This document shows positions 10,267-21,911 of a stretch of 64,000 bases of DNA, in pieces. Below the pieces are notes generated by a model, which worked only from the letters and a program-made list of their open reading frames with translations, did no database searches and was not told the origin of the DNA. The stretch comes from Tricharina praecox (taxonomy: Eukaryota), in assembly GCF_024521635.1 (NCBI RefSeq), contig NW_026250423.1:434001-498000 (forward strand), given 5' to 3'. Position numbers and translations under genes: made by a program. Every line of letters begins with the position of its first letter. The stretch's first letter is position 1.

Positions 10267-11728
10267 TTACTTCGGATAATCCTTGAGATGAAAACTCTTG
10301 AGCCTAACAAACTGCTCAAAGCCGAACCTACTCAGCGTAACCCCCCTTCCCGAATCCTTCCAGCCCGTCCACGCCAAATCCGGCGAGGGATAATCGCATC
10401 TGTTAACAAACACGGTGCCCGCCTCGATCAAATGCAGCAGCTCCTCGCCCGTGGCCAGGTCGCTAGTCCAGACGCTCGCGGTCAGGCCGAGCGAGGAATC
10501 GTTCATTAGAGCGACTGCCTCCGCGTCCGACGCGACTTTTTGCACCGGGATGAGTGGACCGAAGGTTTCCTCGCGCATGACGCGCATGCTGGGGGTGCAG
10601 TCGGCGAGGAGCTCGGGGCGGACGAAGGTTTGGCCGAGGGCCTGGCCGGCAGAGAAGACGTCTGGTGTGAGGAGGCGCGCGCCGTTGGCGAGGGCGTCGG
10701 CGACGTGCTCGGCGATTGTGGACGCGCTGCGGGCGGACACGACGGGGCCCAGGTGCGTGGCTGCGTCCAGGGGGTCGCCGAGTTTGTAGCCCTCGAGGAC
10801 ATTGACGACCTCGGCAAGGAACTGGTTGTAGATGTCGGCGTGCACGTACACGCGCTCGATCGAGCAGCAGCTTTGACCAGAGTTGAAGACGGCGCCGTCG
10901 ACGATTTCGGCGGCGGCCCAGGCGACGTCGACGTCTGCGCGGATGTAGGCCGGGTCGTTGCCGCCGAGCTCGAGGCCGACGGGGACGATCCGGCTGGATG
11001 CCGCTTGCTGGATTGCGAGTCCGCCCGCCACCGAGCCGGTAAACGCTATTGATGCGATTTCCGGGCGCGCGACGAGTTTGGATAGCGTAGGGAGGTCGCC
11101 GCAGTGCACTGTCTGCAGCACGCCCGAGGGAAGCCCCGCTTCCTCGAAGATCGAAACCATGTGCTCCGCGATCGTTGGAGTCTGCGGCGAGGGCTTGAGC
11201 AGCAGTGTGTTTCCCGCCAGCAACGCGGGGATAAGGGAGTTGACAAGGATCAAGTACGGATACTACCATTCCACTGTCAGTCCGCAATCCCTCTCACCCC
11301 TCACAAGCTCAACGAGAACTCACATTCCACGCAAAAACAACCAGCACAACCCCCAGCGGTTCCTTCCGAATCCACCTCTTAAAGCCCTCCTCCACCTCTC
11401 CGGGGGTATCCTTCAACGCCTCGCCCGACACCTTAAGCAAGTACTCTCCGCGCTTCACCGCAGTGGCGACCTCCTTCGGCGTGTAGGCAATCGGCCGTCC
11501 CATCTGCTCTGTAATCTCCTTTCCGAGCTCATCTGACCTGCTTGCCAGAATCTGTAGGGCCTTCTTGACGATTTGCTGTCGTGCCGCTAGAGGGTGCGTG
11601 TGGCGGAAGGTCGAGAAGGCTTTTTGTGCGGTGGCGAGGATGGGCGGGAAGTCGGATTCGGTGACTCCCGATCGGGTCAGGATGGCAGCGCCGCTGATGG
11701 GCGAGATGGTCGTGATCGTGGTGGTCAT
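10267..11728 (-). CDS. aldehyde dehydrogenase family protein (exons 11728-11324, 11262-10267)
   Basis: ALDH motifs EPLGVVLVVFAWN|YPY, KPSPQTP, FTGSVAGG, LELGGND, FNSGQSCCS (catalytic Cys) and EETFGP. Intron 11263-11323 (GTGAGT...CTGAC...TAG). Confidence 0.95.
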
Positions 11729-12165
11729 TTTTGTGGTGGATCAGGGAGAGATGGGGCGATGAGGGGTTGCTGGTGGGGCGATAGCTTGAGCTTATCTATG
11801 GTCCCTGGATCCCTGACCGGTACCAGGGACAGCTACTCTACTGACTAGTAGAGCTCGTGTCACGTGAAGAATCGCGATTCACGACGGTTGCTGTCGGGCT
11901 TTCTTGATCGCAGCTGTGCCATTTCTTAAGGACCTGCTGTCTAGCATTCGTAAAATGTCCAAGTAGTCAGAGTATCTTCACATTTTTGTGTACCATTGAA
12001 AGTCCCGACAGTGGTGCAAAAAGACCCGTGGATCGGGACTGACCCCGGCTACGTCATACAGCCCAACCTCCAACCTCCCGCCTGCACCACCTCTCATCCT
12101 CTCCCATCATTTCCTCCGCCTCTCACACCACCTCCACAGCCCGATCACCAACCCAACCAACCAAG

Positions 12166-12882
12166 ATGAAGCTCCCCACGCTCCTCACCCTCCCCCTCTT
12201 GGCCCTCTTGGCCCTCGCCGCCACGCCCGCGCCCGTGCCCATAGAGCTGCACCTAATGTCGCAATGTCCCGACGCCGTCTCCTGCCTCCGCTCACTGATC
12301 ACCCCGGCACTCCCCTCCCTGCTCAACATCTCCACGCTCCGACTGACCTTCATCGGCACCGCCGCGTCAGGCGGTGGTATATCGTGTCCCCACGGGCCTT
12401 CAGAATGTCTCGGCGACATGCTGCACCTGTGCGGCGCCGCGCTGTCGACGCCGCCCATGCCCGCGCCCGTCGAGAGGTACTGGGGGTTCACGACGTGTCT
12501 CTTTGACGACTATGGACGAGTAGCAGAGGAGGGGTTTGTCAAGGGGTGCACGGAGAGGGTGAAGGGTGCGGGGTGGGGGTTTGAGGAGCTCAATGCCTGC
12601 GTTAGTGACCTGGGACCAGGGGGCGGGCAGCAGTTGCTGCATGAGAGTGTGCGCCGCACGCAGGAGACGGGGGTGAAAACGAGTTGTACGGTCAGGGTGG
12701 CGGGGAGGACGGTGTGTGTTAGGGATGGCGGCGTGTGGAAACAGTGTGAGGGCGGGAGTAGGCCCGAGGATCTAGTCAGGCAGGTGAGGGAGGCGTATGA
12801 GCGGAACGGGATGGGGAGGAGCGTGAGGGAGCAGGTGCTAAGGGAGGGGGCGGTGGAGGGGAATAGGTGGATGGAGTTGTAA
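12166..12882 (+). CDS. secreted/vacuolar GILT (gamma-interferon-inducible lysosomal thiol reductase) family protein
   Basis: Hydrophobic signal peptide. VPIELHLMSQCPDA active-site region, CPHGPSECLGD (GILT CxHGx2ECx2N-like signature) and GVKTSCTVRV...CVRDGG.W typical of fungal GILT-like proteins. Confidence 0.85.
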   Translation: MKLPTLLTLPLLALLALAATPAPVPIELHLMSQCPDAVSCLRSLITPALPSLLNISTLRLTFIGTAASGGGISCPHGPSECLGDMLHLCGAALSTPPMPAPVERYWGFTTCLFDDYGRVAEEGFVKGCTERVKGAGWGFEELNACVSDLGPGGGQQLLHESVRRTQETGVKTSCTVRVAGRTVCVRDGGVWKQCEGGSRPEDLVRQVREAYERNGMGRSVREQVLREGAVEGNRWMEL

Positions 12883-14625
12883 CTTGTAGGACATGTCGTG
12901 GCCCTGCGAAATGCAGTAGGAGGTTTCATGGGCTTCCTGGGGGTTTTCTCGGTTGATTCTTCATGGGATGTTACGCCTTTTTGTCCTGCAAGATTCAAGT
13001 TGTTTCCCTTCTCTTGTCGGTTCTGAGCTTATTGATCGTTCATATTTTGGCACCACAATGGCACGCGATTAAGGTATGCATATTTTCACATGTATCTCAT
13101 CCTCTCGATTGTATCAACCTAGGTAGACACTTTACTGGCTCAAAATTCTTCACATATGGAATTATTCCTTAGCAAGTACCGCTGACCGGCAATCCAACGC
13201 ATCTATTGCCTGTACAGTAAAGCCGTAGCCTGGCCACCCCCTTCCATTGCAATGCAATCCAACGTCCGCCTTCCGAGCTATCTACGAGAGAGAGAGACAG
13301 ATCTTCCTGCTTTATTTCGCATGCAGCCTATCTAGACTATGGCGCGAGCTATCGACGAGTATCACAACTGTCAACCAGCGGAATCACGAACGAGCCCATC
13401 CCTCCAACCTTGACCTTCAACCTTGACCTTCTGCAGACTGCAGCACATACCTTGTACTCAGATCCGCCGTGCTCTCTTTCGTCTTTCGTCTTTCGTCTTT
13501 CGTCTTAAGTCTTGGACGAATAATGACCTCGTCACCTCGTCATCTCGACCTCGCCTTATCATAGGCCGAACACCAAATACCGGAATGCCAGTGCTGGGCC
13601 ACGACTCACAATCTCTGTAGTCGGGGGAAAAGTTGAAAAAAAGTTGAAAGCGCTGTTGTGGGCCTGTGGGTAGTGGGCACTGCTGGATCATGATTCATGG
13701 GGGATTTGGTTGGATTCTTAGGCGTGTGGCCGCCGCATGTCCGAATACCCATACGCCGTAATTGCAAGGCATTGTGACTTCGTGATTTCGTTGTATGATG
13801 GTATCGGCGGCTTTGGTGCGGGTGCCGTAAATACCTGTAGCCCGTAGGCTGTCCAGTGTCCACTTCGTGAGCACTGATCACTGAGAACCTACATACTTGA
13901 TACTTCTGAGAGTGAGTCTCAGGTCTCTAGTAGCACCATATCCAAAGAACAATGGCATCGATTCGCTGGAAGTGTGACTCGTGAGGACTTGTATCGACGG
14001 GAGATAGGCGCGCCGCACAACCCGACTACAGCTACAACTACAGATTCCCTGAACCAGTCAAGGGGCCTTGGGATGAGTTGCCAACTGCCAAGTTCCAACT
14101 GTTCAATGATACAACGAAAGCCCCCGAACCGTCGGGCCAGTAACCAGTACCGTAGAGTAGGTACCAAGTAATCTCTGAAGTAATCTCTGCGAAAAAGAAG
14201 TAGATACATCACATCGAGCCCAGTACAAATACCCTTCGTCGTCGTCCGTCGTCATCCCCGTCGCCCGATCAAATCCTCGAAAACCAACCAATTGCAGAAA
14301 ACTCATTCGAAGTTTACAAAAAGACCTCTAGGTAAAGCATACAGCAAAAAAAAACAAAAAAAAACAGAACACACAAAAGAACACACCCAACCTAGGAAAG
14401 ATAGGAAGGGAACAGGAACAACACAACAGCAAGCAACCACACCAACCCTTTTTTTACCCATTACCAGAGAAAAGCAACCGGCTCCTAAAGAAAAGAAAAA
14501 AGAGACCCCCAGAACAGAATTAGAATCTAGAAAAAGAAGAGTCCCGTAGTACCCTCCCCCCGTATGAGTCGTGCTGATCTAATCTAAGTGAGCGTGTTAG
14601 TAACGCCGTTGCCGGTGGCGGTCTG

Positions 14626-17600
14626 CTACTGGGCCTTGGCCTTCTTCGGGGTCTTCGCGGTCTTAGCCTTCTTGGCGGACTTCGGGGGCGCATACGAGTC
14701 GACAGTCTTCCTCCTGCGCTTCTTGCCGGCGGTTTCATCCTCCATGAATAGGGCGGGCATCTCGTCGACCGGGGTGGCGACCTCGCTTCCCTGGACGGTA
14801 GTGCCATCCATGGTGAGTTCCGGCGGGGCGGCATCGCGACGTTCCTTCTCTGCTTCCCAGGCCTTGACTTTCTCCTCGCAAAGCGCCTTAGAGTCGATGT
14901 CGTACGTGTGGAGATGGATGCAGTGTTCACACTTAATCCAGAACGCCTGCTCGATGGGGCCGAAGTTGAGAAGATCGAGCTCGGGAAGGCTCTCTCCGAT
15001 CAATTCGGTCTGCTCCCAGTTCAGACAGTCCTCACAGTATCCATTCTCACACCAACGGCAACGGAAGATGAGACCTCCGGCGTTAACTATGAAATTCTGA
15101 TTAGCGATTGTAACTGTATGCGGAAAGGAAGTGGGTAATACCTGTCTTCTGCTGACACTCGACACATTCGTGCTGAGGGCAGTAGAAATGTCCGACCTTA
15201 CTACCCTTAAGCCTAGGCTGAAAGTCTTCGGGAAGACATCCGTCATGATATACCCTGGGGCAGCCAGAACACGTGTGTAGAGTTCCTCCATTAAAGCAAA
15301 TCTGACAGTAGTCCTGGTGCTCGATAGCCTTCCTCTTGCGCTTGGGAGGCTCCGCAAGTCTAGGGTCTTTACCGGCGAACGTGGCAACGGCTTCCCAAGT
15401 GTCGTTACCGATAGTCTCCTTCAAGACGGGGTGACCATCAACCATGACAACACGTTCCATGCCCATGCGCCTGTCAGAACGAGCCCAGTCCTTCGCGATG
15501 TCCTTGTTGGAATCGGTCGATTTCTCGTGTCGTTTTCCTTCGAAAACGCGGGTCTCGACACGCTCCATCTCGGAAAGCCAACGACGCTCTTCTTCAGCCG
15601 TTTCATCGCTGATACCCTCCTTGTTCTCGGTCTCCATCTTCTCTTGATAGTCACGGCACTTCTGGATGGTAGTCTCCCAATCCCATTGCAGCATCTCCGT
15701 GGGGTCGATCTCAGGCCTTGCAATGGCACGAGAACCAGAGCGAACAAGAGCCATCAGCTGGTTGGTCGACAGCGTGGGGAGATTGTCTTCGGTGTCGCCG
15801 TTGAGACCAGCGGATGAAGTCTGCGTGTGAATATCACGCATTGCTTCGGTGACCTTCGCCGAGAGGTACAGCTTCTTCCGGATGCGGCCCATCATCTGCT
15901 CTTCCACCGTACCCTGAGTGATCAGACGGTAGATGGTAACCGGATTCACCTGGCCGATTCTGTGGGCACGGGCCTGCGCTTGAAGATCGGCCTGCGGGTT
16001 CCAGTCGGACTCCAACATGACCACATCAGACGCACTCGCCAGGTTGATACCCAGTCCTCCGGCGCGAGTCGAAATCAACATAACCTTATAATTGGGGTCA
16101 TTATTAAAAAGTCTGATTCCGAGGTTTCGTCTGGCTCTCGGTGTGGTGCCATCTAGTCGACCAAACTTGAACTTGCTGCCATCGCCTCCCTTGAGATGCA
16201 AGAAATCTTCGCAGACGTCGAGCATCTTGGTGAACCCTGAGAAGATCAGAACCTTCTTCCCTTGGTTCATGCAAAGCTCGTCGATGAGCTTATCGAGGAA
16301 GATCATTTTCGACGACGCCAACATGATCGTAGCGGAGTGATCCGCCACGCTCTCGGGTTCTGCATTGGGGAGAAGGTACGGGTGATCGCAGCACTAGAAG
16401 CATGTGAGCATGAAACAGTAAAAAGAACTTCACCCGGGAGGGGCATACCTTGCGTAGCTGCATCAATAGATTCATGAGTTTTCTCCACTTTCCGTCCGAT
16501 GAAGTGCTCTCCGCCACAGCCTGCTCAACGATCTTCTTGGTGTCGCCCCACTGGTCGATCTCAAGCTCTTCCAACTCCTGATCGTTGACGATGTGCTCGC
16601 CCCTGATCCCATCTTCGGTCTTGATAGGATCCTGTTGCACTTTCTCCTTTGAGTTTGCAAAAACACCCTCGAGAAGTCCCTTGTCGAGCCTGGTCAGGAG
16701 TCGCTTGTACCAGAATCTCTGCATGGGTGTCAGAGGCAGGAACATGATCACTTCCGTCTTCGTGGGCAGTCCAAGATTAACTCCGATGCTCTCTTTCATA
16801 CGACGAAGCATGACCAACTCGAGGAGCTTCCGAGCGTTGTCCATGACACTGAGATCATTCTTGCCGAGAGTTAGGTCGAAAGCATCGCTGAACAGTTTCA
16901 TCGTCTGTTCCGTGAAGACATCCGGGTACAACCAGTGAAGCAGTGCCCAAAGCTCGGTGAGGTTATTCTGGAGAGGCGTTCCGGTCAAGATCAAGCGATA
17001 TTCGGCGGCGAGTCCCTGCAGCGCCAATGCGATGTTCGTCTTGTCATTTTTGATCTTGTGTCCTTCATCCAAAGCAACATAACGCCAGACAAACGCACGG
17101 CGAAACCAAGCCTTCTCACGCTCAAAGACCTCGTAGCTGGTTACAACGACATCGTATCCGCGTCCTTCGCCTTCGGAATCGTCTGCACCGAATAGCTCAC
17201 CGGTCTCGGCCACCTTCTTGAGTCTCGCACGCTCTGTAGTAGGTCCGTGAAAGCGCAGGACACGCAAATGAGGAGTCCATTTCTTGCACTCCGCTATCCA
17301 GGAAGAAAGCACCGAGAGTGGGCAAACTACCAAGAACGGACGCTGATGTCCTGCGGGCACCGGCTCGTAGGTGGTAAGGTACGAGAACAGAGACAGTGTC
17401 TGCAGAGTCTTGCCTGTACTTCATGTAAGCGTCCGAATAGTCGGGGCTACGGAGCGGGAGGAAACATACCAAGACCCATCTCATCACCTAAGATGCCAGA
17501 AGCACCGTTCCTGTAGAGCCAGAGCAGGTACGAAAGGCCAGACAACTGATAAGGTTTCATGGTAGCTTTGACACTGCAGATTCCGTTAGATACATCTCAG

Positions 17601-19157
17601 GTGTCATTGGGCAACAGATACATACTGTTTGGGCTGTTTGTCCAAGAGCTCATAAGGAACCACTTCTGGATACTTGATGGTTTCAACGCGTTCTTTCTGG
17701 TCGTCTTCGGCCTTGACATTATCCCGGACCTCGACTTCGAACTTGGCATTGCCATCCTCAAGCTTGACGCCATTCACCGGGGCCTCAGTCTTCACCGAGT
17801 TGGGCTCGCCAGTAACATTTGACTCCGCCTTGACAGGAATCTGAGGGCTGTCCTTCATCGTGACGTCCGGATTCGAGGCAGACTCCAGGAGTCTCTTCTC
17901 AGCCAGTTTGGCGATGTAATTCTTCTCTGGCAGTAAAGGCTCATACAGGTCCCTGTACTTAATGTAGAATTCGTCCCGCTTTCTCTTGGTCTCCTCGAGT
18001 AACATGCGAATCTCCGTCCTAACAGAATATTCGCCCTCGTCATCTCCATCTCCGACCTCATCCGGATAGTTCGGGTCCCCGGCATCGGGCAGAACACACG
18101 AGACTCCGGCACGAACACACCCTCCGCACCGTGGCTTCTTCCTATCACACCTGCGTCTCGCATCACGACACGCTTGGCAAGCCTTTCCAGCTGGCAGACG
18201 CTTCTGTAGGTGCTTCTTCTTCCCGGACTTCCGCTTCTTGGTCGTCCGCTTGCGGTTACTAAGCGCAGTATTGCTATCGACGTAGTCGGCCAAACCCGCC
18301 GGAGCAGCGAGCGAGCCACGGGGCCTCAAGGATCGACCTGACCCTACACCACGCTCAGCTCTCTCCTTCACGGGCTCCTTGTTCTCCTCCTGTTCTTCTC
18401 CCTCCTCCTCATCCTCCTCCTCCTCCTCGTCATCATGGTCCTCATCCTGGTGCTCCGAGTCGCTACCCTTCCCATCCGATGAATCCGACGAAATCTCGTA
18501 GAGTCCTACGCTCTCGCGTCTGGGACGGAGTGAGCGACCTCCCGAAGAAGAAGCTGCTGCTGCTGTGGTGGCATTCCCGGCCGCGGCTTCGGATTGGTGG
18601 GCTGCGCGGGAGGAGGTCGAGGCCTTCGAGGAAGGTGCAGCGGGAGCGGGAGGCGCAGAGGCTTTGACGCGCCCTGAGGTGCGCCGGCTGCTAGGTCCAG
18701 GGGAGCCCCCGGATGACGCGCTGGCGGGTGCCATAGCGTACGCGGGGCGGTTGGGATGTTGACGGATTCGCTTGCGCTGATGCTGGTGCCGGTGCTGGGG
18801 CGCGACGCTGGGCTCGGGCTCGGGCTCGGAGTCGGAGGAGATGTAGATGGGACGGCGACTCGAGGAACGGAAAGGGGCAGGAGCGGGAAGGAAGCTGGGT
18901 TGGACGCGAGAGATGGGGAAAGGGTGGTGGTGGGCTGGGAGGTGACGAGGGGCAGCGACGAAAGGAGGTGGAGGTGGTGGGCGAGGCTGCTCTGACTTTT
19001 GAATGTGCGGCGGTGGGGGCAGGAGGAAAGGGTGAACGGGGTTGCTGTCGCCGTTCGAAGCAGAGGAGGAACGCGACAACGACGAGTTTACGGTTGACGC
19101 TAGCGTGTGGGTGGTGGTAGCGCCATCGGTTTTGGTGGCGGACTTGGGCCTGGACAT
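14626..19157 (-). CDS. SNF2-family (ISWI/CHD-like) chromatin-remodelling ATPase with C-terminal PHD/NSD-type Cys-His fingers and an N-terminal Zn(II)2Cys6 motif; introns 17574-17625, 17414-17469, 16394-16448, 15087-15141; start uncertain (ATGs at 19226, 19157, 18734)
   Basis: Motifs [19 protein letters not shown] (Walker A), [17 protein letters not shown] (Walker B), [61 protein letters not shown] region CQIC...[12 protein letters not shown] followed by CPQHECVEC...CRWC...CEDC. Four canonical introns join the ORF-track pieces. Confidence 0.92.
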
Positions 19158-19538
19158 TTCGGGTTTTCGATGCACGAGGCACGCCGCACTTCTTAGAGAG
19201 ACAGAAAGGATGGGAGTCGGATGCATTTATCTACGTGACGATTTGCTATGTACATCCATTCCACGACCGGACCGCACGCCTTTCACGCCGATGTTTGAGC
19301 GTGCGTTCCGTTCACAGCATTTTGGGCGTTTGCCATTTGCTTGTTCTTTCTGCTTGCCCACTCGACGGCTGGAATAGAATATGCACGTTCCCGCGTCGAA
19401 GAATCGCCACCAAGGATGCGGTCGAAGTATTCGAAGCAGTCTAGAGACCTTCCCCAGAATTCGCTGCACCTGGTGGAGTGCGACATTCGAGCAAACGCCG
19501 CATAGCAGACTCTTCACAAGTGAAGCGAACAACGATCG

Positions 19539-19695
19539 CCCTCCTCCCACTCCTCCGCCTCCTCCCACTCCTCCTCCCACTCCTCCTCTCCCACTCCTCC
19601 GCCTCCTCCCACTCCTCCGTCTCCTCCTGCTACTACTCCTCTTTATGCCCCCCTCTCCTCCTCTCCTCCTCTTCATCATCATCCTCCCCTCCTCT
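19539..19695. repeat. C/T-rich degenerate (CCTCCCACT)n low-complexity tract between the divergent SNF2 and hexokinase genes
   Basis: Repeated CCTCCTCCCACT units visible in the sequence. Confidence 0.7.
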
Positions 19696-20444
19696 TTCGC
19701 GGACCACGTGTAAAGAATGTCGATTGAACTTGCTTTTTCGACGCGGTCCACACACAGCAGAAAGCGGCAGTTGCTGCCGATTCCAGGGGGACGCGTTAAG
19801 CATGCGGCTCGTAGCGATACCAAACGAGTGACCCTACATGACACCATTGCCTATCGTCTGGTGGATCAGTTGACAGCGCTGCCGCCGATAAGTTTATATC
19901 TCACCTACCAGATGACGAAAGATGGCTGCGGAAACGAGCTGCTATCTCTGGCTTCCTGGGGACGAGCGTCAATGCCTGCTCGCTAATCCAGACGTTCGGT
20001 GGACACGCTTGGGCCCTGATGGCCGGATGTGTCCACAGATTCGATTAGCGAGTAAAGTAGGCTTCGCCGGGCCCGAGAGGGCGCACCATCCATTGGGTTC
20101 AACGTTGTGGGGCTGTCTTCTGTGTTCTCCCACTTGTTTGACTGCTCTATCCGTTTGTGATGTGCCATCCGAGACTCGCCGTTTCCCCCGCACCGGCGCC
20201 TCCGTGCGCACGAGAAGCGGTCTCCCCCCCTGTCAGGAACGGACCTGAAATAGCAGCTCTCCATGGACCATGGGCCCTGTGACTTCCAGACCTACCTATT
20301 GGAGTGAGGTAGCACAGATGTCTTTCTCGATCTACTCCACCGCTTTCTCTCTCTATCGCCCTCTCTCTCTTCCCCTCTCTATCTCCATCCCTCCCTCCCT
20401 CCTTTTCTCTCCCCTCCTCTCTCTCTCTCGCTCTCTGTTACGCC

Positions 20445-21911
20445 ATGCGCCTGCCAGATACTTTTCTAGCCGAGCTCCGCGCGCCGCTGTCGCAGCTGCC
20501 CGAGCTCGCGCAGAGTTTCGAGAGTACCTTCAACGACATCGCAGCGCACTCTCGCGCACAGTTTCTGCCTACGCCGATCATCTCTCTGCCGGACGGATCC
20601 GAGACAGGAACCTTCCTCGTTCTCGATCTGGGCGGCTCAAATCTTCGTGTTGCCATTGTCGAGCTGCTCGGCAATTCCGGGGGTGATGGGGATGAACGAT
20701 TGAGAATCTCGCCGCAGGGAAGCTGGCTGATACCCGAGTCGCTCAAGAGCGGAACTGCCGATACGCTGTTTGGCTGGGTTGCGCAGCGGACGGCGGAGAT
20801 TGTGCAGGCGTATGTAGCGACGCTGGCGGGAAAGGAGCGGGAGGAGGTATTCGCAGAGGGGATCCGCGTCGGCGTGGCGTTTTCTTTCCCGATGCAGTGA
20901 GTCCCGGGCTACCGTCTTCCTGCCGAACCCAGCTGACGATGCCGCAGACAGGAATCGCACACCTCCGCCGTAATAATGCGTATGGGCAAAGGCTTCACCG
21001 TCGAGCGAACCAACAATCTAGCCGCGCTCCTGTTGAACGCCTACGACGCTCTTCCCGCTACCACCACCGCCACCACTGCCTCCCCGCCCCTGCGCATGAC
21101 CGCAATCACCAACGACTCCGTCGCCACCCTCCTCTCGACCGCGTACCTCCGCCCACCCAGCGCCGGCACCCACGCCGCCGCCGGAATCATCGCGGGCACG
21201 GGCACAAACGCCACCTGTCTCTGCCCTGTCGAAAAGCTTGCCGCTGATAAGCGCCGCGAAGGCGCACAGGTGATTTTGATGAACACGGAGTGGAGTCTCT
21301 ACGGCACACTGCCGTCGCTGGTGCCGATCCGGACGGCGTGGGATGAGGACCTGGCTGCGCGTAGCGAGAAGCCGGGGTTCCAGCCGTTTGAGGAGATGGT
21401 GGGCGGGAGGTATCTCGGCGAGCTGGTGAGACTGGCGGCGGTGGAGTTATTTGCTGCCGCCGGGGATGTGCCGCTGCCGCAGATATTGACGATGCCCTAT
21501 GCGGTCGATACAAAGCTGTGCTCGAAGGTCGAGGGGGCGGCATCGGTGGACGCCGCGACGGAGGTGCTGCGGACATACTTTGGCTCGGGCTCGGCGGAGT
21601 TCTGGGATGCGCAGCGAACCGCTGCGTTCCGGGAGATTGCGGGAGCGGTCTCGGACCGTGCCGCGGCACTCGTTGCCGCTGCGACCATTGGCGTGCTCGC
21701 CGTCAATGACGAGCTGGCGGGCGGGAATAGGAAGGTCGTCGTAGGGTTCACGGGGACGGTGCTGGAGCTGTACTGGAGGTTCAGAGAGAGGTGTCAACAG
21801 TTTCTGGATGTACTGGCGGGAGTGGGGAAGGTGGAACTCGTCGGCGCCAGGGATGGCGGCGTTATTGGCGCGGCTGTACTGGCTGCTATGGTGGAGGCGG
21901 GGACTACGTGA
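20445..21911 (+). CDS. hexokinase-family protein, atypical XprF/HxkD- or N-acetylglucosamine-kinase-like branch (exons 20445-20896, 20948-21911)
   Basis: LPDGSETGTFLVLDLGGSNLRV (phosphate 1), FSFPM, MGKGF, TNDSVATLLS (catalytic Asp), GIIAGTGTNA, NTEWS, FQPFEEMVGGRYLGELVRL and DGGVIGAA. Intron GTGAGT...GCTGAC...GCAG. Confidence 0.9.

Follow-up and report, generated by a model that had tools for sequence, protein, structure and literature searches.

A Zn(II)2Cys6 cluster joined to a SNF2 motor and a PHD-like module in cup fungi: a candidate self-targeting chromatin remodeller

One standing question about chromatin remodellers is how they locate their sites; in the cases compared here this is done by separate recruiting factors. 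A locus on the minus strand of the window, a 64,000-nucleotide stretch of Tricharina praecox DNA, raises the question of whether a remodeller may choose its own DNA targets. An earlier note on this DNA had described a GAL4-type zinc cluster fused to a SNF2 ATPase with PHD fingers. The fusion is real, expressed, conserved and lineage-restricted, and it is built of known parts from which we infer a function.

The gene has five exons (19157-17626, 17573-17470, 17413-16449, 16393-15142 and 15086-14626; all coordinates of this gene are on the minus strand), which join across GT-AG introns into a 1437-aa frame without stops. Exon 1 (17626..19157) is defined by its frame and by transcript contig X1, which reaches 19202; the ATG at 19157 was taken as the likely start, and in-frame ATGs are also present at 19226 and 18734, both upstream of the cluster. 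Exon 5 (14626..15086) runs to the stop codon and encodes a basic C-terminal tail. Two contigs from different studies, X1 (14200-19202) and X2 (14218-19032), are unbroken across the cluster and skip all four introns: intron 1 (52 nt, 17574..17625), intron 2 (56 nt, 17414..17469), which divides Walker A, intron 3 (55 nt, 16394..16448) and intron 4 (15141-15087). Since the introns are skipped, the contigs are spliced; they are short-read assemblies whose RNA status was guessed, and one may come from the window's own source organism. Run X3 covers the locus only in scraps. The first intron, which had been predicted from the letters, is therefore real, and the exon-1 frames of relatives end at the same motif. 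The earlier note had also proposed a single polypeptide and had allowed that transcripts might skip the cluster; both contigs include it, and one spliced frame carries the cluster, the motor and the PHD-like module. Cryptic splicing out of the cluster was considered and rejected, as there is no branch-point match upstream and the contigs are continuous. The gene is present in one copy in its own genome. In an independent relative, P0363 (1384 aa, from a contig of 4.8 kb, 83% identical in the motor), the matches to Zn_clus, SNF2, Helicase_C and PHD follow the same order as in the window protein.

Further contigs begin no more than 35 bases away from where the SNF2 contig has its 5′ end: record 2 of X1 starts at 19237, and record 5 of X2 spans 19202-19518. 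Contigs in window positions 19202-19700 are perhaps a tightly divergent transcript, possibly that of a hexokinase gene, or else a longer 5′ UTR. This hexokinase-family gene (20313-21911, plus strand) matches Pfam Hexokinase_1 and _2, and the neighbourhood also holds a GILT-type thiol reductase with a signal-peptide-like start (12043-12882, plus strand, Pfam E 3e-12) and an aldehyde dehydrogenase gene (10267-11740, minus strand).

From its N-terminus, the protein consists of a disordered region, a basic tract, the cluster, an acidic linker, a conserved helix and a variable spacer, followed by the SNF2 motor, a conserved C-terminal region, a PHD-like finger and a second Cys-rich finger. In the disordered N-terminus a short R-S-L-R-P-R ... 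Y-x-I-S motif stands twice. After the first copy (18474..18539) come a Tyr and a Ser/Asp-rich acidic tract. The second copy (aa 268-294, 18276..18356, 53% mean identity) forms the upstream flank of the cluster and is conserved also in orthologues that lack the cluster; both copies recur in relatives. The basic stretch that had been noticed ahead of the cluster was located at 18257-18210, and this Lys/Arg tract may act as a nuclear localisation signal or contact the DNA backbone. The cluster itself (aa 327-354, 18096..18179) is followed by the acidic, variable linker (18027..18095, 16% mean identity) and by a helix pair conserved in the family (aa 378-418, 17904..18026), which is present with or without the cluster and is ancestral to the remodeller. 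Exon 1 does splice into the ATPase, as had been claimed, but the cluster is not adjacent to Walker A: it lies 186 aa upstream of it.

The segment 18179-18096 encodes 28 residues with the spacing C-x2-C-x6-C-x6-C-x2-C-x6-C (2-6-6-2-6) and a Pro two residues before Cys4, a pattern unique to this site in the six frames of the window. The canonical spacing reported earlier is borne out by exact translation and by Pfam, where Zn_clus matches at 32.6 bits (cut-off 21, E 8.4e-8); six relatives score 24-33 bits. Among solved sequences the closest are Lac9, Gal4, Hap1, Rsc30, Ppr1 and Rsc3 (E 0.001-0.07). In an alignment of 20 cluster rows (19 non-redundant, window protein included) the six Cys and the Pro are invariant, which settles in the affirmative the earlier doubt over whether relatives conserve the cysteines. 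The residue before Cys3 is basic (R/K/H) in all 20 rows; Gly stands just before Cys1 in 19 rows, and Asp comes after Cys3 in 19. Four residues after Cys2 there is an Arg in 19 rows and a His in one; by our own alignment this position matches the base-contacting Lys18 of Gal4. Mean pairwise identity is 55% across the cluster and 42% at its non-Cys positions, compared with 59% in the helix, 34% in the basic linker and 13% in the spacer. Recognition-helix residues differ among Pezizaceae-type, Rhizina and window-type clusters, so one common DNA motif is not assured.

We expect the cluster to fold on two Zn ions. An AlphaFold model (25 sequences, mean pLDDT 60, pTM 0.25) has two short helices, after Cys1 and Cys4, plus a confident helix pair, with low-confidence linkers on either side of the cluster. 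Gal4-type factors have a dimerisation coiled coil after the linker; the long helix that follows the cluster in the model is also found in cluster-less orthologues, and the spacing from cluster to conserved helix is fairly constant at 19-46 aa. A fold search with the N-terminal model, which barely probed the cluster, returned generic helix matches only (best Z 5.1). The Fungal_trans middle homology region has no Pfam match in the exons of this gene, nor in any of three relatives with full-length sequences. No Zn cluster was found in the 23 other SNF2 loci of the same genome that were scanned, where the one regex match is a low-complexity Cys run; elsewhere in this genome there are 11 further weak matches to cluster proteins. 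Two SNF2-family loci on different contigs (G000:C12:741144-742803 and C68:26517-28176) have identical scores and spacing and represent a recent duplication or an assembly duplicate.

The motor keeps its motifs. Its N-terminal lobe (16376..17551, exons 2-4) contains Walker A, the DEGH box and motif III, its Helicase_C lobe (15950..16300) contains motifs V and VI, all of them are intact, and SNF2_N and Helicase_C are both matched. The earlier note had set the motor beside ISWI/CHD-type remodellers, but the ATPase is neither a true ISWI nor a true CHD. The ISWI subfamily is defined with a C-terminal HAND-SANT-SLIDE (PMC8822348, in its available text). This module is absent from the full-length relatives P0363, P0003 and P0107, and the genome's own ISWI (L009) has HAND/SLIDE. 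Separate genes for CHD1 (L018), Mit1 (L025), LSH (L011), SNF2, INO80 and MOT1 are also present. Pfam finds no chromodomain, and the PHD is C-terminal to the motor as opposed to N-terminal in CHD1 and Mi-2 (Mit1). ISWI membership was thus rejected on the missing HAND-SANT-SLIDE, the separate ISWI gene and a clade of its own, and CHD membership on the missing chromodomain, the C-terminal PHD and the separate CHD1 and Mit1 genes. ALC1 (CHD1L) has a C-terminal macro domain, and none occurs among the Pfam matches.

Scores of the ATPase against PDB sequences were highest for ISWI/SNF2H (353 bits), followed by LSH (330), ALC1 (312) and then CHD1. In a FastTree of 41 rows without ALC1, which remained of 60 prepared ones once 8 rows from the family and 11 from distant or partial paralogues had been removed, the family forms its own clade (support 100, stem 0.93) that is sister to LSH (SH 93) and then to ISWI, a placement that carries a long-branch warning. 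We conclude that the ATPase probably represents an uncharacterised SNF2 subfamily related to ISWI, LSH and ALC1. Pezizomycotina SNF2+PHD proteins automatically named 'ISWI complex ATPase ISW2' are its orthologues (49-72% identity over the C-terminal region), and the label is wrong in the strict sense because the family is a clade of its own and a genuine ISWI gene exists beside it. An Atlas search with P0363 returned generic SNF2 clusters. With residues 500-830 of P0001 it returned haptophyte-dominated Helicase_C+PHD clusters (feature score 0.87, TM 0.45), from which the subfamily may be older than fungi, a lead only; the C-terminal part of P0001 also resembles NSD/C5HCH clusters (TM 0.29), again as leads only.

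The PHD fingers of the earlier note were examined by ligand pattern and by Pfam score. The PHD-like finger (aa 1226-1274, 15173..15319) has the ligands Cys4-His-Cys2-His, and the Kalaharituber orthologue passes the Pfam cut-off of 24 with 25.6 bits, yet the window PHD stays below it at 18.9 bits. The second Cys-rich finger (aa 1276-1305, 15025..15169) is split by intron 4. A C-terminal PHD ligand pattern occurs in 161 of 207 relatives and the second finger in 178 of the 207; within the 161, an acidic residue stands two before Cys1 in 125, Gly-Gly is found in 152 and Pro-Arg in all. Pfam also gives weak PHDvar_NSD matches. This signature presumably resembles that of unmodified-H3K4 readers and of the NSD PHD-C5HCH module, a likeness that we treat as a lead only. 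The module looks more like a reader of unmodified H3 than of a methyl mark, and reading of the H3 tail is what we would predict for it. Like the note's 'self-targeting', its 'histone-mark reader' is something that we infer from the sequence.

To place the cluster among relatives, we combined two orthologue searches (best 120 of 1312 and best 120 of 1325 matches), which gave 206 different proteins. The N-terminal helix was found in 178, of which 129 are informative because their sequence continues for 110 aa or more ahead of the helix. A cluster, or any CxxC, upstream of the helix was present in only 2 of these 129 informative orthologues, from Rhizina undulata and Kalaharituber pfeilii, both Pezizomycetes. 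Among the matches listed, those with names from Orbiliomycetes, Leotiomycetes, Dothideomycetes, Lecanoromycetes and Geoglossomycetes have no cluster; names from Sordariomycetes or Eurotiomycetes do not occur there, so the absence applies to the classes named before. A class-wide Pezizomycotina architecture was rejected on these counts. The Orbiliomycetes orthologues (P0009, P0010, P0012-P0014 and others) are about 1500 aa long with long Cys-free N-termini and no cluster, and P0130, a Peltula orthologue of 2070 aa that also carries PF01150, is probably two genes merged in one model.

A profile built from the window, Rhizina and Kalaharituber segments was then compared with 1.84 billion representatives. 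Among the best 150 of 1045 matches, 16 fall below 1e-30, all with an intact cluster, and almost every one is a frame of exon 1 whose end coincides with the shared intron position. The search favours positives because the profile included the cluster, and flank-only matches were also returned. Two unrelated matches, P0226 and P0229, carry four and three tandem Zn2Cys6 clusters. Both flanks occur in 69 proteins and the cluster in 28 of them, redundant members counted. From flank to flank, proteins with the cluster have 74-116 aa (median 83) and those without it 32-77 aa (median 42), so the cluster is an insert of about 41 aa. In a flank-only tree (85 columns, rough support) the 19 non-redundant cluster bearers fall in one Pezizomycetes clade (99/95) together with five others: Trichophaea, an Ascobolus model whose shortness prevents a call, and three contiguous frames that lack the cluster and include an Ascobolus-like one. 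The clade thus has four cluster-less sequences, including Trichophaea, where the lack is read from a gene model. Because residues just before Cys1 are shared, we favour one gain of the cluster early in Pezizomycetes, followed by losses.

Broken Morchella gene models help to hide the fusion. In M. conica the first Met of the model lies beyond the cluster, in Morchella sextelata a separate short annotated gene ends inside it, and P0220, a Morchella-like genomic frame, joins both halves, with an identity of 86% to the M. conica half and 74% to that of M. sextelata. The proteins at this break are P0242, P0002 and P0220. In Terfezia, Tirmania and Ascobolus the models begin too far downstream for a cluster to be visible. 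The earlier note could not say whether the architecture was already described. No publication on the fusion was found in the literature searched, most subscription journals and supplements being outside its scope, and the available texts of PMC9038196, PMC9113485, PMC8822348 and bioRxiv 2023.10.20.563377 do not mention the family or the fusion; domain tables in genome papers on Pezizomycetes could list the combination, and the precomputed Pfam labels of two public proteins show it.

What, then, does the cluster do? The reading that we prefer, and hold to be somewhat probable, is that a monomeric cluster tethers the motor to CGG- or GC-containing DNA, making the protein a self-targeting remodeller and a natural counterpart of the engineered Chd1-Ume6. 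Zn binding, CGG-type DNA binding and tethered nucleosome remodelling are all predicted steps here. We hypothesize that an early Pezizomycetes ancestor gained the Zn(II)2Cys6 insert in the remodeller's disordered N-terminus. The cluster monomer and the adjacent basic tract would bind CGG/CCG-type GC-rich sites in linker DNA, and the flexible tether of about 190 aa would raise occupancy of the motor on the neighbouring nucleosome, which the motor would slide or restructure; meanwhile the PHD-like module at the C-terminus would check the H3 tail. In this way the protein would act as one nuclear chain, a one-chain version of Ume6+Isw2 or Rsc3/Rsc30+RSC. As ISWI's HAND-SANT-SLIDE is absent, the cluster is the only recognisable DNA-binding domain outside the motor. 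We count in favour of self-targeting the single frame in two spliced contigs, the equal domain order of P0363, the invariant Cys and Pro, the Arg at the base-reading position, the basic residue before Cys3, the identity of non-Cys cluster positions (42%, against 16% in the acidic linker and 13% in the spacer), the two short cluster helices of the model, the intact motor motifs and the positioning of nucleosomes by Chd1-Ume6. Against it we count the missing Gal4-type middle region, the ancestral origin of the helix that follows, the conservation of the basic linker, at 34% not far below that of the non-Cys cluster positions, and the dispensability of the cluster, which is missing in 127 of the 129 informative orthologues (among the matches listed), in Trichophaea and in three frames. 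A lone Zn cluster contacts only about 3 base pairs, and so short a contact does not suffice to single out a locus unless the cluster dimerises or has a partner. This small footprint and the dispensability of the insert are our main doubts.

A rather doubtful but serious alternative is that the cluster is folded and binds DNA as a general affinity module or linker-DNA sensor, with a GC bias at most, comparable to an AT-hook or SANT-SLIDE, and that the PHD module and partners bring the motor to its sites, which is how cluster-less orthologues would work. This would fit a cluster that is monomeric, has no middle region and lies within a basic tract shared with cluster-less orthologues; most of the family, and some close relatives too, have no cluster, and a family without HAND/SLIDE would find a generic DNA tether useful. 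However, Arg at the base-reading position in 19 of 20 rows is more constraint than a generic basic patch needs, and a single Ume6 cluster sufficed for targeting in the engineered fusion (PMC4864466, in its available text). We think it unlikely that the cluster is instead a protein-contact or regulatory module, which pairs with a Zn-cluster factor, binds a partner or gates the ATPase together with the adjacent helix. Zn-cluster subunits of remodellers do exist (Rsc3/Rsc30), the genome offers the other cluster proteins mentioned above, and the distance to the conserved helix varies little, but conservation is centred on the DNA-facing basic residues and the model, as weak evidence (pTM 0.25), has no stable packing of cluster on helix. 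Very improbable, and largely refuted, is an artefact in which a transcription-factor fragment and a SNF2 gene were joined by mis-assembly or read-through, or in which the cluster is a neutral remnant: the Morchella models that stop inside or start after the cluster and the guessed RNA status of assembled short-read contigs would speak for it, but both contigs cover the cluster gap-free with all four introns skipped, P0220 joins the two annotated halves, the cluster sits at one and the same position in 19 divergent relatives, and the sole ATG between the cluster and the motor-region linker (18005) stands where relatives mostly have Lys.

Building on tethering by a monomeric cluster, we tentatively propose, at less than even likelihood, a sequence-targeted single-chain remodeller that reads a CGG motif and whose PHD requires a given H3-tail state, with gain and repeated loss of the cluster switching between self-targeted and partner-targeted modes. 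Since the motor is near LSH/DDM1, its DNA reading may be sensitive to CpG methylation. In morels and related cup fungi an unstudied remodelling motor is joined to a transcription-factor finger and may choose its own DNA targets. The analysis also exposes an apparently unstudied SNF2+PHD subfamily, mislabelled ISW2 in databases, and shows that Morchella gene models break at the cluster.

The known systems closest to this protein, taken from sources available to us in part, set it in context. Chd1 fused to the Ume6 Zn2Cys6 domain positions nucleosomes at Ume6 motifs in vivo in yeast, and its authors call the fusion not naturally occurring (PMC4864466); the one-chain design is otherwise known there from a leukaemia fusion that the same paper cites. 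Both Chd1-Ume6 and the Tricharina protein combine a Zn2Cys6 domain and a SNF2-family motor in one chain with no SANT-SLIDE-type domain. Chd1-Ume6, however, is artificial, with a Chd1 motor and a C-terminal cluster, whereas the Tricharina protein is natural and conserved, with an N-terminal cluster and then a PHD-like module. Yeast Isw2 is targeted in trans (PMC7968928), and Ume6, a Zn-cluster factor, brings this ISWI-type motor to nucleosomes next to the motif (PMC7968928; PMC4864466), as we propose for the fusion; there recruitment passes through Itc1, while the Tricharina motor is not ISWI proper and its link needs no adaptor. Rsc3 and Rsc30, lineage-specific, sequence-reading associates of RSC (PMC13580576), are likewise lineage-restricted Zn-cluster readers attached to a remodeller, but they are separate subunits of a SWI/SNF-class complex, and the Tricharina cluster is covalent to a different ATPase subfamily. 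Bhr1 of Dichomitus squalens also joins a P-loop NTPase and a Zn(II)2Cys6 cluster in one fungal protein, and its authors (2026) knew of no earlier fungal fusion of this kind (PMC13532241, in its available text); Bhr1 is a basidiomycete activator with a septin-like NTPase, whereas the Pezizomycetes protein is a SNF2 translocase that also has a PHD-like module. A further comparison is within the family itself. The Pezizomycotina orthologues named ISW2 share the N-terminal helix, the motor and the PHD-like module, and those examined outside Pezizomycetes have no cluster and a flank gap of about 42 as against 83 aa. Close relatives that lack only the 41-aa insert offer a built-in control for the effect of a covalent sequence reader.
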